Assembly (NCBI GenBank): GCA_051883515.1
Contig: JBJETW010000008.1
Location: 9,662 to 73,661, forward strand
From: Candidatus Onthoplasma sp.
GTDB lineage: Bacteria; Bacillota; Clostridia; Christensenellales; UBA1242
Reading direction: 5' to 3'
Length of the DNA stretch: 64,000 nucleotides
Positions 46,763 through 50,335 of this stretch are shown here, one piece after another (positions within the stretch are counted from its first letter, which is position 1; each line of letters begins with the position of its first letter). The notes under the pieces were generated by a model. It ran no database searches and was not told the DNA's origin. It worked only from the letters and a program-made list of their open reading frames with translations. A program made the position numbers and the translations under genes.

Positions 46763-47017
46763 ATGAATATGTTTGAAGAAATCGAAAAATTTATGCAGTC
46801 TGGCGGTGCTACTGCCACATTTAGGATTGTAAATCTTGGAGGAACAAGTTTATATATTGAGGGGATTAAGTCCATTGTGTCTATTGAGAAACATGAAATT
46901 TGTTTAGGACTAAAAAAACAATTATTGATTGTGTCGGGTGAAAATTTGACAATAAAATATCTTGACAAAACGACCTGTCTAATTTTGGGGTCAATTTATA
47001 AGGTGGAAACAAAATGA
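46763..47017 (+). CDS. yqfC: YabP/YqfC-family sporulation protein
   Basis: YIEGIKSIV..I..G.NL.IKYLD..LILG.I motif; upstream of yqfD. Confidence 0.8.
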   Translation: MNMFEEIEKFMQSGGATATFRIVNLGGTSLYIEGIKSIVSIEKHEICLGLKKQLLIVSGENLTIKYLDKTTCLILGSIYKVETK

Positions 47018-48102
47018 GATTTGATTTAACAGGGTATAATATTGACAATCTTTTAAAAACATTATACACAAAAAAAGTTCCAATAAAGAACTTGTCTCGC
47101 CCAGAATATAATCATGTTGTTTTTGATGTTGACGACAAATTTGAAAAGAAACTAAAACGATATGTGGCAAATTATAAAGGTCCGAAATCAGAGACATTAA
47201 AGAAAAAACTCCCCAAACTTTTAATCACTCAAATTGGCGTTATTTTGGGAGTGTTTGTCGGATTTATAATGTATTTCTATTTGTCATCTTTTACTTGGCA
47301 AATAGAGATATATGGAACAAAAGAATTAAAAAAGGAAGATGTCGTAAGAGTTTTGAAAGACAACGGTGTTAGAACTGGAAAAATAATCCACCTAACAAAT
47401 CAAGAAATTGAGTCAATTCTTCTCAACAATTATGACCGAATTGCTCAAGTTTCCGTAATCAAGCAAGGCACTGCAATAATGATAAATTTGAGTGAAAAAT
47501 TAGTGTATGAAAACACATCTTTTGAACCAATATGCGCGACAAACAGCGGAATAATAAACTCAATTAATGTAGTCACTGGCACAGTGAATGTTAAAGTTGG
47601 CGATTTTGTGAATGCGGGAGATATTTTAGTTTTGCCGTTCAATCTTAATTCGAAAGGAGAAAAAGTCAATGTTTGTCCAGAAGCAGAAATTAGGGCAACA
47701 ATGTATTTATCATCAAAAGTTGAAGTGACAAAAATTGAAACGATTTATGTTAGAAGTGGAAAGAAGAGAATTATATACGATTATCAGTTTATGAACCATC
47801 ATTGTTTTTTTGGCAAAAACAAAAATTCGTTTGCTCTTTTTGATTTGGTCGTGTATAATGAAAATGTAAGCAATATTGTTCCGCTTTCAAGGATAGTTAA
47901 TGTCTATTATGAACTTGTTCCTAAAGAAATCACACATGATTTTGAAACAGAGAAACAAGAAATAGAGAAGAAAAGCAAAGACAACGCATTAACAATGCTT
48001 ACAAATGGTGAAATTCTTGACGAAAGAACCGAATCAATCATAACAGCGGACAAAATGATTGCAATAACGACAATAACGGTCGATGGAATAATCAATGATT
48101 AA
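47014..48102 (+). CDS. yqfD: Sporulation protein YqfD (stage IV)
   Basis: TM segment, WQIEIYG, POTRA-like segment, GDFVNAGDIL motif. Confidence 0.82.
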   Translation: MRFDLTGYNIDNLLKTLYTKKVPIKNLSRPEYNHVVFDVDDKFEKKLKRYVANYKGPKSETLKKKLPKLLITQIGVILGVFVGFIMYFYLSSFTWQIEIYGTKELKKEDVVRVLKDNGVRTGKIIHLTNQEIESILLNNYDRIAQVSVIKQGTAIMINLSEKLVYENTSFEPICATNSGIINSINVVTGTVNVKVGDFVNAGDILVLPFNLNSKGEKVNVCPEAEIRATMYLSSKVEVTKIETIYVRSGKKRIIYDYQFMNHHCFFGKNKNSFALFDLVVYNENVSNIVPLSRIVNVYYELVPKEITHDFETEKQEIEKKSKDNALTMLTNGEILDERTESIITADKMIAITTITVDGIIND

Positions 48103-49468
48103 TATTTTTGGGGAAGTTGAAAAAGAAATTGAAAAAGATTTAAATCGTGTGTTTAACGAAGTTAAGCATACACTTTCTTTGCCAGAAAATATCGATGTTA
48201 ATCTTAGCTTTGTTTCAAAAGAGGAGATAAGAAAACTTAATAATAAAACTCGCGGAATTGACAAGGTGACAGATGTTTTGAGTTATCCATACACAAATTT
48301 AAAGGTGGGAGAAAAACTCAATTTAGAAGATTATAAATTTGACATTGATCCTGAAACAAACACACTGACGTTTGGAGATGTGTATATATGCACAGACAGA
48401 GCAAAAGACCAAGCAGAAGAATATGGACATTCATTAAAACGAGAAATTTGCTTTTTGTTTTGTCATTCCTTGTTGCATTTGAGTGGATATGACCACATAA
48501 AGAAAGAAGATGAAGAGCAAATGTTGGCAATGCAAAACAACATTTTGGACAAATTGGGCATAAAACGTGGAATTGCGTTCAAAGCTGGGTTTGTGACAAT
48601 TGTTGGGGACACAAATGCGGGGAAATCGACGCTTTTAAATGCATTGGTTGGTGAACATGTGGCAATCACTAGTCCAAAATCTCAGACAACACGAGAAAAT
48701 ATTCAAGGAATATATAATGACGAAAATTGTCAAATAGTGTTTATTGACACTCCAGGATATCACAAGCGCAAAACAAGAATAGACGACGAAATGGATAAAA
48801 GTATTGAAGTTGCACAATCAGACACAGACATTGTTGTTATGATGATTGTGGCGAACAAACCGATTGTTGAACAATATAACAAGTTGAAACAAAAGGTCAG
48901 TGCAGATGCAAAGAAAATTCTTGTTATCAACAAAATTGATGAAACAACTTTTGAAAAGTTATATCCTCAACTTGACGAACTTAACAAACTCGCTGATGTT
49001 GATGAAATTTTGCCAATCTCTGCAACAAAAAAGAAAAATGTTGACGTTTTGCTTGAAATGATAAAAAAATATCTTCCTGAATTTGACCATGAGATGAGAT
49101 ATTATCCAATTGATGAATATACAGATAAAAATCTTAGACATATGGTGGCAGAAATCGTACGAGAAAAAGCACTTTTGTGTCTTGACGACGAAATTCCGCA
49201 CGGCATACATGTGGTTGTGACAGACTATAAGGAAGATGGTGACCCAATTCAAATAATGGCAGAATTATATTGCGAAAAAGACAATCACAAAGCAATCATA
49301 CTTGGGAAAAATGGAGAGATGATAAAGAAAATCTCTACACTATCTAGAAAATCAATTGAATATGTTGTTGGTCAACACGTAAATCTTCAAATATTTGTAA
49401 AGGTTAAACCAAATTGGCGAGATGACATAAATGCAATAACAGAATTTGGACTAAATGTTAGTGAATAA
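48095..49468 (+). CDS. era: YbeY endoribonuclease-Era GTPase fusion
   Basis: aa 1-160 carry RGIDKVTDVLSYP and HSLLHLSGYDH (YbeY); the rest carries GDTNAGKS, DTPG, NKID and the KH motif ILGKNGEMIK (Era); single open frame. Confidence 0.93.
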   Translation: MINIFGEVEKEIEKDLNRVFNEVKHTLSLPENIDVNLSFVSKEEIRKLNNKTRGIDKVTDVLSYPYTNLKVGEKLNLEDYKFDIDPETNTLTFGDVYICTDRAKDQAEEYGHSLKREICFLFCHSLLHLSGYDHIKKEDEEQMLAMQNNILDKLGIKRGIAFKAGFVTIVGDTNAGKSTLLNALVGEHVAITSPKSQTTRENIQGIYNDENCQIVFIDTPGYHKRKTRIDDEMDKSIEVAQSDTDIVVMMIVANKPIVEQYNKLKQKVSADAKKILVINKIDETTFEKLYPQLDELNKLADVDEILPISATKKKNVDVLLEMIKKYLPEFDHEMRYYPIDEYTDKNLRHMVAEIVREKALLCLDDEIPHGIHVVVTDYKEDGDPIQIMAELYCEKDNHKAIILGKNGEMIKKISTLSRKSIEYVVGQHVNLQIFVKVKPNWRDDINAITEFGLNVSE

Positions 49469-49507: not shown

Positions 49508-49648
49508 ATGCAAAAATCAAACGCTTTTATTGAGATGTTTTTTAAAACAGGTGACCCGTTTTGTTTTTTGCTTGCCAAAGATGAAGAAAAAACTGAGAAA
49601 TTAAGAGAAGAAATTTTATCAAACGTGAATGATGATTTAACATTATAA
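49508..49648 (+). CDS. YqzL-like small protein (46 aa; not in the ORF track)
   Basis: MQKSNAFIEMFFKTGDPFCFLLAK...; RBS AAGAGGTG; era-yqzL-recO synteny. Confidence 0.72.
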   Translation: MQKSNAFIEMFFKTGDPFCFLLAKDEEKTEKLREEILSNVNDDLTL

Positions 49649-49654
49649 AAAGCA

Positions 49655-50335
49655 ATGGATACAAAAGCAAAAGGTGTTGTAATAAAACTAAACGACTATA
49701 AAGACGCAGACAAACTTGCGTCAATTTTTACAATTGAATATGGCATCATAACAGCAAAATTTGTTGGCGTGAAAAAAGAAAAAGCAAAAATGAAAGCGGT
49801 TGCTCAACCTTTTGCTCTTGCTGAATTTACAATGAGTGAGAAAGCGGGGAACAAGGTTATAACTGGAGCGGATTTGTTGGACAACTTTTCTAATCTATTT
49901 TTAGACTATAACAAGACCATTTGTGGATACATAGTTCTTGACATATTACGCTCAATTTTGCCAAAAGAAAAACCGGAAGCGGACATTTTTTTGTTGACAA
50001 TTTCTTCTCTTAAAGATATTGAATTGACAAATGAGTATGTCTCATTAATTTCTTATATATTAAAATTTATTGACTTTGAAGGTCTAAAGATTGACTTGCC
50101 AGATTGCAACTTTGTTTATCTAGACAAGGATAGCGGGAACTTTCAGTCTGAAAGGTCAGTGAATTGCGTGCAAATTGACAAACAGGTCTATAACGCTTTA
50201 AAATCCATTTCTGAGAGTGCAGGGAAAATCACAAAAGAATACAATAAAAAAATTTTGAAACAATGTTTACATTTATTGCATAATATTTTATTTATAAAAT
50301 TTAACGAAGACATAAAAAGTTTTGATTTTATTTAA
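49655..50335 (+). CDS. recO: DNA repair protein RecO
   Basis: KGVVIK..DYKDADKLASIFT..GII OB-fold N-terminus; position after era. Confidence 0.85.
   Translation: MDTKAKGVVIKLNDYKDADKLASIFTIEYGIITAKFVGVKKEKAKMKAVAQPFALAEFTMSEKAGNKVITGADLLDNFSNLFLDYNKTICGYIVLDILRSILPKEKPEADIFLLTISSLKDIELTNEYVSLISYILKFIDFEGLKIDLPDCNFVYLDKDSGNFQSERSVNCVQIDKQVYNALKSISESAGKITKEYNKKILKQCLHLLHNILFIKFNEDIKSFDFI

Follow-up and report, generated by a model that had tools for sequence, protein, structure and literature searches.

A natural YbeY–Era fusion protein in a gut bacterium with a 0.93-Mb genome

In the window analysed here (the whole 64,000-nucleotide stretch of DNA), ybeY and era form a single gene, ybeY::era, at 48095..49468 on the + strand, on which all features of this locus described below lie. 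The gene is one uninterrupted frame of 1374 nt, with an ATG start, 457 codons, no internal stop and a terminal TAA, and it encodes a full-length YbeY at the N-terminus followed by a full-length Era (GTPase and KH domains) at the C-terminus. According to a genome search, it is both the sole ybeY and the sole true era of the genome, a metagenome-type assembly of 0.93 Mb (934 kb) in 15 contigs that is 97.7% complete. The initial annotation had proposed a natural fusion with both halves intact, which is borne out by full-length profile matches and by the motifs present in the one 457-aa frame; the YbeY–Era fusion of this tiny-genome gut bacterium is confirmed as genuine. We consider it highly probable (roughly 0.88) that the protein genuinely serves as an obligate, bifunctional assembly factor of the 30S platform, consisting of a predicted-active YbeY, a linker of about eight residues and a complete Era. 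An exact-sequence look-up of the 457-aa protein of the window matched no record, and P0001, a 98% relative, was used in its place.

The YbeY domain (residues 1–153; 48095..48553) has the zinc-dependent, metzincin-like hydrolase fold. It was matched over the full length of Pfam YbeY (PF02130; residues 8–154, profile positions 3–129 of 129, E 2e-40, 137.9 bits, cut-off 25) and of NCBIfam TIGR00043 (YbeY; residues 8–158, positions 5–146 of 146, 137.1 bits, cut-off 45). In Foldseek comparisons, this half shares its fold with the stand-alone YbeY proteins of Escherichia coli (1xm5), Staphylococcus aureus (7y7o) and A. aeolicus (1oz9) at a TM of approximately 0.8. The zinc-binding motif identified from sequence, H124-SLL-H128-LSGYD-H134 (48464..48496), has the form H-x3-H-x5-H and agrees with the stricter pattern H-x3-H-x2-G-x-D-H, residues H124, H128, G131, D133 and H134 all being invariant in 121 fused orthologues. 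Within the motif T52-R53-GIDKV-T59-DVLS, R53 and T59 (TRGIDKVTDVLS; 48251..48271) are the equivalents of Arg59 and Thr65 of E. coli YbeY, for which gate-keeping roles have been described (preprint 10.64898/2026.08.26.747345); the spacing of six residues is the same in both proteins, and among the 121 orthologues R53 is invariant and T59 conserved in at least 90%. The zinc site and the Arg59/Thr65 equivalents are thus common to the fused and the stand-alone proteins. Different from the latter, the YbeY described here is covalently attached to Era, reads HSLLH where E. coli YbeY has HGxxH, and is encoded in a genome from which the usual partner YbeZ is gone.

In the classical view, YbeY carries out the endonucleolytic maturation of the 16S rRNA 3' end. 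The identification of this half as YbeY stands, but its initial designation as the nuclease is contested, because a 2026 preprint (10.64898/2026.08.26.747345) describes YbeY instead as a uS11 isoaspartylase that converts Asn to isoaspartate in the uS11 tail. The same preprint reports that an Asn-Gly-Cys signature in that tail co-occurs with ybeY, and uS11 of the present genome (C4:68163-68498) keeps this signature in its C-terminal tail, PIPHNGCRPPKKRRL. The Asn-Gly(-Cys) element that marks a cognate YbeY substrate is placed at the kink of this tail.

The Era half is complete as well, and the features first noted in it, namely a variant G1 (GDTNAGKS), G3, G4 and a KH domain, were all found. 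It comprises a GTPase domain (residues 162–335; 48578..49099) and a C-terminal KH domain (residues 336–457; 49100..49465). NCBIfam Era (NF000908) covered residues 162–452 and positions 1–290 of 291 (318.9 bits, cut-off 237), TIGR00436 (Era) was likewise matched over its full length (224.5 bits, cut-off 116), and Pfam MMR_HSR1 and KH_2 were placed at residues 167–280 and 366–442, respectively. From the sequence, G1 was located at G171-DTNAGKS-178 (48605-48628; fitting GxxxxGKS), G2 at T198/T199, G3 at D218-TPG (48746-48757), G4 at N279-KID (48929-48940) and G5 at S309-A310. These five motifs are conserved in the 121 fused orthologues, in which G404 and G407 of the KH motif G404-KNG (GxxG; 49304-49315) are invariant.

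Stand-alone Era proteins (A. aeolicus 3iev/3r9w, E. coli 1ega and S. aureus 9jkp) have G1–G5 and the type-II KH GxxG in common with the fused protein, whose Era N-terminus, in contrast, is not free. The best Foldseek match of the Era half was 3iev, which is Era bound to the 16S rRNA 3' end, and the AF2 (AlphaFold2) model of this half is nearer to that GNP/RNA-bound structure (TMt 0.71) than to apo or GDP forms (0.50); the predicted conformation is therefore similar to the RNA-bound ON state. Structure 9jkp represents S. aureus Era with GDP only, and a literature search on this code returned nothing relevant. The P-loop reads G-D/E-T-N-A-GKS in the fused genus, whereas G-R/K-P-N-V/A-GKS is usual. 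The "TN" of this loop was ruled out as a fusion-specific trait, since the unfused genomes G014, G069 and G040 carry it too, and the acidic second residue is the sole P-loop feature specific to the fused genus among the genomes compared.

The cluster opens with a yqfC/yabP-family gene (46763..47017; Pfam YabP, weak TIGR02856 match), followed by yqfD (47014..48102; Pfam YqfD, 4.6e-49). Between the stop of yqfD and the start of the fused gene there is an overlap of 8 nt, suggestive of translational coupling. The conserved downstream neighbour is recO (49655..50335; Pfam RecO_N and RecO_C), and the order yqfC-yqfD-ybeY-era-recO recurs in the majority of the 22 loci probed, irrespective of fusion. 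We take the corresponding cluster of Bacillus subtilis to be yqfC-yqfD-phoH-yqfF-yqfG(ybeY)-dgkA-cdd-era-yqzL-recO. The synteny section of a published review of the subject bears out part of this order (PMC10582724). Flanking yqfC, yqfD and recO and their orientation are shared between the two clusters, whereas four internal genes are gone from the fused genome and the remaining ybeY and era are joined. The supposed loss of the Bacillus-type intervening genes was corroborated, as searches of the whole 97.7%-complete genome for phoH, pgpH/yqfF, dgkA and cdd gave no match.

The further proposal that deletion of these genes itself produced the fusion does not hold. The compact order also occurs in unfused loci (most of those probed), ybeY directly adjoins era throughout the family, and the two genes are separate in most of the 58 genera sampled. 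Comparison of these sequences indicates that the fusion is a later, separate step after gene loss. Sister genera retain a stop, a Shine–Dalgarno sequence and a start at the ybeY/era junction, often in frame, and one family displays the whole series from out-of-frame separate genes, through in-frame genes with one stop and with Shine–Dalgarno sequence and start intact, to the welded frame. By this comparison, the ancestor of this family of reduced-genome gut Clostridia first lost the genes between ybeY and era, which left the two abutting, translationally coupled and often in the same frame; within the fused genus, the ybeY stop was then lost together with the Shine–Dalgarno sequence and start of era through a minor alteration of the junction, which welded the frames. 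A tie between the fusion and loss of YbeZ/PhoH was considered and ruled out, because PhoH is missing from the sampled family in fused and unfused members alike, its searches yielding no full-length match but only weak P-loop matches and one 135-aa fragment.

Fused genes were found in three of 399 sampled Clostridia (~1%). On the tree, the fused state accounts for four changes, at least three of which are forced by well-supported branches, and within genus g58 one genome is fused and two congeners are not. Other Clostridia thus joined ybeY and era in independent events, of which the sample contains a minimum of three to four. Such a rare and polyphyletic distribution, split even within g58, also bears on the reason for its retention. 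Fusion may be neutral: genome compaction could have produced it as a by-product without functional benefit, tolerated only because YbeY and Era act next to each other in any case. In sister genera that share the reduced gene set, ybeY and era remain unfused, and linker length varies freely, G132 having a 22-aa insert and G243 a long linker. On the other hand, the fusion has persisted in the genus through deep divergence (62–68% identity) without reversion, and the identical N-to-C order recurs in unrelated phyla (PMC10582724). We regard neutrality as possible although somewhat doubtful; it is compatible with the anatomy of the obligate bifunctional factor preferred here. Any selective advantage is hypothetical, as the fusion is rare and unfused sister genera with the same gene set do well.

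That similar fusions might already be recorded in Clostridia proved correct. InterPro lists YbeY–Era fusions (IPR002036 plus Era), and they were discussed by Gruffaz & Smirnov 2023 (PMC10582724), who described them as by far the commonest Era fusion and asked how they act. Since the design has been described in other bacteria, the present protein is a well-documented new example and is not new in kind. It shares with the known fusions the N-terminal YbeY, the C-terminal Era and the class Clostridia, and differs from them in having arisen separately, within a genus of gut Clostridia with ~1-Mb genomes, in the survival of unfused intermediates in sister genera, in the very short linker (~8 aa) and in the absence of YbeZ/PhoH throughout the family. 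What is new is the clean evolutionary series within one family, with the same outcome recurring independently in other Clostridia, and the indication that a fusion can be the sole source of YbeY and Era in a ~0.93-Mb genome lacking YbeZ. Such fusions serve the Era literature as support for a YbeY–Era partnership. Because both predicted activities come solely from the fusion in the absence of YbeZ, short-linker proteins of this kind would be sensible choices for structural studies of the joint placement of YbeY and Era on the nascent 30S platform, a question posed in the same review (PMC10582724).

We infer the working mode of the fused protein from knowledge of the separate YbeY and Era proteins. 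Binding between the two is known from E. coli and S. aureus, and YbeZ/PhoH is the usual NTPase partner of YbeY. Physical and genetic interaction between YbeY and Era is documented (PMC5101352), as is their interaction together with the fusion architecture (PMC10582724). In its GTP form, the Era half would bind the 16S rRNA 3' end and the h45 region on the nascent 30S platform, thereby holding the tethered YbeY half beside uS11 and the 16S 3' end. There, YbeY would carry out its zinc-dependent reaction, either isoaspartylation of uS11 (as in the 2026 preprint) or the classical cleavage at the 16S 3' end, and the fusion would fix a 1:1 ratio and co-delivery of the two proteins.

A stronger version, which we judge unlikely, holds that the tether is mechanistic and not merely tolerated, the GTPase cycle of Era directly gating the YbeY reaction on uS11 and the 16S 3' end. 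With YbeZ/PhoH gone and no free pool of YbeY or Era, the Era cycle would then gate YbeY, and GTP hydrolysis with release of Era would withdraw YbeY as well. On this reading, both the long stem branch of the fused clade and the genus-specific P-loop, acidic and lacking Pro (G-D/E-T-N-A-GKS), would reflect co-adaptation to the attached YbeY. If it were true, the fused protein would offer a single-chain reagent to trap a YbeY–Era–uS11–pre-30S intermediate, of which, to our knowledge, there is no structural view so far.

That Era is obligately fused is suggested by the junction. The last YbeY helix ends at residue 153 and strand beta-1 of Era begins at residue 162 in the AF2 model, so that the linker (residues 154–161, LGIKRGIA; 48554..48577), modelled as coil, is only about eight residues long, in keeping with the minimal linker initially noted. 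Its length differs by one residue among the 121 orthologues. Both domains were folded confidently, but because the pTM of the fused protein is only 0.65, neither a fixed YbeY–Era interface nor the relative orientation of the halves can be claimed from this model; a PDB search gave no chain with both YbeY and Era domains. The linker lies where unfused relatives have the ybeY stop, overlapped by a GGAG-type Shine–Dalgarno sequence, and then an ATG, GTG or TTG start of era. No GGAG-like sequence and no conserved era start codon were present at the junction of the five fused congeneric genomes, and Era is therefore probably made only as part of the fused protein. It is improbable that internal initiation releases free Era, or that the linker is cleaved, and that the two activities act as separate proteins. 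In-frame TTG and ATG codons do occur upstream of the junction (M143, L144, M146, L151 and L154), but a start at GTG-167 would cut into Era strand beta-1, and the short linker bears no conserved cleavage-like motif in the 121 orthologues. Internal initiation in particular was rejected, because the junction lacks both the Shine–Dalgarno sequence and the start codon.

Conservation argues for two working halves. More than 120 protein clusters have the fused form, and in the 121 orthologues (66–98% identity) both halves keep their catalytic and nucleotide-binding residues, which are nearly all invariant. Mean column conservation is lower in the YbeY half (0.71) than in the Era half (0.87), and YbeY has been lost from some reduced genomes (preprint 10.64898/2026.08.26.747345), as might be expected if one half were inert, for example a decaying YbeY remnant serving as an N-terminal extension of a working Era. 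Such a relic is very improbable, however, given a full-length YbeY profile match far above cut-off, the retention of R53, the three zinc-site histidines and, nearly always, T59, a genome without a second ybeY, and the highest pLDDT of the whole model (~90–97) in this half.

Each of the five species genomes from the genus has the fusion, as does a sixth fused relative, a Hadza human-gut MAG (68% identity), beyond which a genome-contig search with a single protein returned only unfused or unrelated matches. Three independent pig-gut metagenome assemblies (ENA) contain the same 1374-nt frame, 97.6% identical to that of the window, with an identical junction and no indel; a comparison with a 98%-identical strain gave 22 synonymous and nine non-synonymous codon changes, again without indel. 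Judging from these sequences, the fusion is not an assembly artefact: although the genome comes from a metagenome-type assembly in 15 contigs, a missed stop or frameshift joining two separate genes is effectively refuted by the independent assemblies, by the congeneric genomes and protein clusters that are all fused, and by a junction devoid of the signals that a separate era would need.

Between era and recO lies a conserved 46-aa ORF (49508..49648; from the frame list) that matched no family in Pfam or NCBIfam. It was called as a gene in three independent contigs, had tblastn matches in genome G013 and in the Hadza MAG, and occupies what we take to be the position of yqzL in B. subtilis, whose product it may resemble.

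The ORF at 48095..49468 (+) of the window begins with ATG and is listed as a single frame of 457 aa, and its DNA reads through with no interruption. Pfam identified a complete YbeY domain (residues 8-154, profile positions 3-129 of 129, E 2e-40), a GTPase domain (residues 167-280) and a KH_2 domain (residues 366-442). Both halves were matched end to end by NCBIfam equivalogs, YbeY by TIGR00043 (residues 8-158, positions 5-146 of 146) and Era by NF000908 (residues 162-452, positions 1-290 of 291; 318.9 bits, cut-off 237). All motifs named in the initial annotation, which had described one YbeY-Era frame of this length, were found: TRGIDKVTDVLS and H124-x3-H128-x5-H134 in YbeY, GDTNAGKS (G1), DTPG and NKID in Era, and GKNG in the KH domain. 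The YbeY-Era fusion is confirmed. The architecture has already been described in several Clostridia, some Selenomonadales and Thermoleophilum album (PMC10582724), as had been suspected for Clostridia, and the window adds one more example.

Independent assemblies, on which the junction was judged, indicate that the fused frame is not an artefact. A protein with 98% identity (P0001) occurs on three distinct ENA metagenome contigs, each from a different sample and at least one with a record labelled pig gut metagenome. Over all 1374 nt, the window gene differs from these contigs at 33-34 positions (changed codons: 22 synonymous, 9 non-synonymous) with no indels, and the junction DNA is identical. 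Searching a protein database gave at least 120 clusters (454-458 aa, 66-98% identity), every one carrying PF02130, PF01926 and PF07650 and labelled, where named, 'GTPase Era [Clostridia bacterium]'.

In Bacillus-type clusters, genes for PhoH/YbeZ, DgkA, cytidine deaminase and PgpH/YqfF (7TM-HD protein) lie between or beside ybeY and era. None of these has a match anywhere in the window's genome, whose assembly is 97.7% complete (934 kb, 15 contigs). The fused gene is the sole YbeY match in this genome and the sole match of Era grade, the remaining hits being other GTPases that score under the Era level.

We searched 151 genomes from 58 genera, all of approximately 0.6-1.6 Mb, of the reduced-genome gut Clostridia family to which the window's species belongs (f1). 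An uninterrupted fused frame is present in 5/5 genomes of the window's genus (62-68% identity) and, outside it, in one genome only (G099), two congeners of which are unfused. ybeY and era are still adjacent in the other genera of the family; some unfused pairs lie in different frames, abutting or overlapping, and in about 20 of the 151 genomes the two share a frame, one stop codon and 1-15 codons apart. Most of 22 loci probed, fused or unfused, have yqfD upstream and recO downstream. The junction of the unfused relative G053 reads ...KITRE*DMSFKSGFVTILGRPNVGKS, where GGGAG spans the stop and the start codon is ATG. That of the fused genus reads ...NITRNSYKCGFV... (...LGIKRGIAFKAGFV... in the window), and all five fused genomes lack a stop, a Shine-Dalgarno sequence and a start codon there, leaving no internal start signal. 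Adjacency across the family and the loss of these signals in the genus indicate that gene deletion in the family ancestor placed ybeY next to era and that a later, small junction change fused them. The initial interpretation, in which deletion itself produced the fusion, finds partial support: the frame is a real fusion and the intervening genes were deleted, but ybeY and era stood side by side beforehand, and the fusing step was the loss of stop, Shine-Dalgarno sequence and start between them.

Among 399 genomes sampled across the Clostridia, uninterrupted full-length fused frames occur only in the window's genome and in G236 and G243, both verified as true fusions. G165, a congener of G236, is unfused at the junction (...RDAGSV*KGAAMINSESAFRSGF...). 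In a maximum-likelihood tree of concatenated YbeY and Era from 29 loci, the window's genus forms a 100/100 clade and the 'fused' label changes four times, at least three of these changes being forced by well-supported branches. The fusion is therefore rare (about 1%) and polyphyletic, and the same route appears to have been followed at least in the window's genus and in G236, the two lineages for which a close relative without the fusion is available for comparison. In many Clostridia (about 20/151 in the family and 28/399 in the class), ybeY and era are in frame with a single ybeY stop codon between them that overlaps the era Shine-Dalgarno sequence; this state, one mutation from fusion, may explain the repeated origins. 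No internal branch in the family part of the tree is longer than the stem of the fused genus, at 0.66 changes per site; its length could reflect faster change after fusion or simply an isolated genus. A locus of Candidatus Phytoplasma luffae (L043, NZ_CP054393.1), matched by the genome scan over query residues 28-436, does not look fused: its Era G1 motif follows stop codons, and the zinc motif of YbeY is missing.

An AlphaFold2 model of the fusion, with 121 orthologues as input, has a mean pLDDT of 82.1. With the last YbeY helix stopping at residue 153 and strand beta-1 of Era starting at 162, the linker is about 8 residues long, in agreement with the minimal linker first described. In Foldseek searches, the N-terminal third resembles the YbeY structures 7y7o, 1oz9 and 1xm5 (TMt ~0.8) and the C-terminal two-thirds match Era crystal structures, best 3iev (Era in complex with GNP and the 16S 3' end, TMt 0.71), with the apo/GDP forms 1ega and 9jkp below it (TMt ~0.50). 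The pTM is 0.65, and a fixed inter-domain geometry therefore cannot be claimed.

Both halves are under purifying selection. Across 121 fused orthologues, YbeY residues R53, T59, D60, H124, H128, G131, D133 and H134, Era residues G171, T173, N174, G176-T179, T198-E201, D218-G221, K280, D282, S309 and A310, and KH residues G404 and G407 are invariant or nearly so. Linker length varies by one residue only in this set. The linker is long in G243, and in G132 (locus L014, ~1975-2046) a 22-residue lysine/glutamate-rich insert (RYPVGASKKDEEKIEKDKLENKSKQ) falls exactly within it, so linker length is not constrained. Different from the usual Era P-loop (G-R/K-P-N-V/A-GKS), that of the fused genus (G-D/E-T-N-A/V-GKS; window 48605-48628, loci L010-L014 and L036) has Thr for Pro and an acidic second residue. 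The Pro-to-Thr change is also found in the unfused relatives G014, G069 and G040, and the acidic residue is confined to the window's genus.

In its GTP state, Era binds 16S rRNA at the 3' end and the h45 region, and it promotes the recruitment of uS11 and closure of the platform; YbeY binds uS11 and Era, with ybeY deletion suppressed by era overexpression (PMC5101352, PMC10582724). The fusion would bring YbeY and Era together, 1:1, to the nascent platform, where, with the rRNA held by the Era half, the YbeY half could work on uS11, the 16S 3' end or both; its mode of action is listed as an open question (PMC10582724). The tether may be advantageous or merely tolerated, and the evidence leans to the latter because the fusion is rare, its origins are repeated and linker lengths are variable. 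The label 'nuclease' given to YbeY in the initial annotation is contested: a 2026 preprint (10.64898/2026.08.26.747345) describes a metzincin-like hydrolase whose substrate is the asparagine at the kink of the uS11 C-terminal tail (Asn119 in E. coli, context PHNGCR), which it turns into isoaspartate, with Arg59, Thr65 and the HGxxHxxGxDH motif as key residues, and reports that ybeY presence tracks this asparagine across genomes. uS11 of the window's genome ends in PIPHNGCRPPKKRRL, so the predicted YbeY substrate signature is intact, which speaks against a relic YbeY half.

PhoH/YbeZ is a conserved NTPase partner of YbeY. It is missing from essentially all 151 sampled family genomes, where the search returned only weak hits to P-loops within larger proteins and, in G105, a single fragment of 135 aa. 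A tie between its loss and the fusion was rejected, since unfused family genomes lack it too. Its absence from the window's genome and the family indicates that YbeY works without YbeZ throughout this reduced-genome lineage.

The gene order at the locus is yqfC(yabP)-yqfD-ybeY::era-46-aa ORF-recO. The sporulation-associated yqfC/yabP and yqfD (46763-48102), retained in a 0.93-Mb genome, lie directly upstream of the fusion, whose start is overlapped by the yqfD stop by 8 nt. Both score well under the cut-offs of sporulation equivalogs (TIGR02876, 131.8 bits vs 256.7), and their role here may therefore differ. The conserved 46-aa ORF between era and recO (49508-49648, +; MQKSNAFIEMFFKTGDPFCFLLAKDEE...) has a Shine-Dalgarno sequence and no match in Pfam or NCBIfam. 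Gene calls include it on each of three independent contigs, it is detectable in the comparison genome G013 and a Hadza MAG, and in position it is reminiscent of B. subtilis yqzL.
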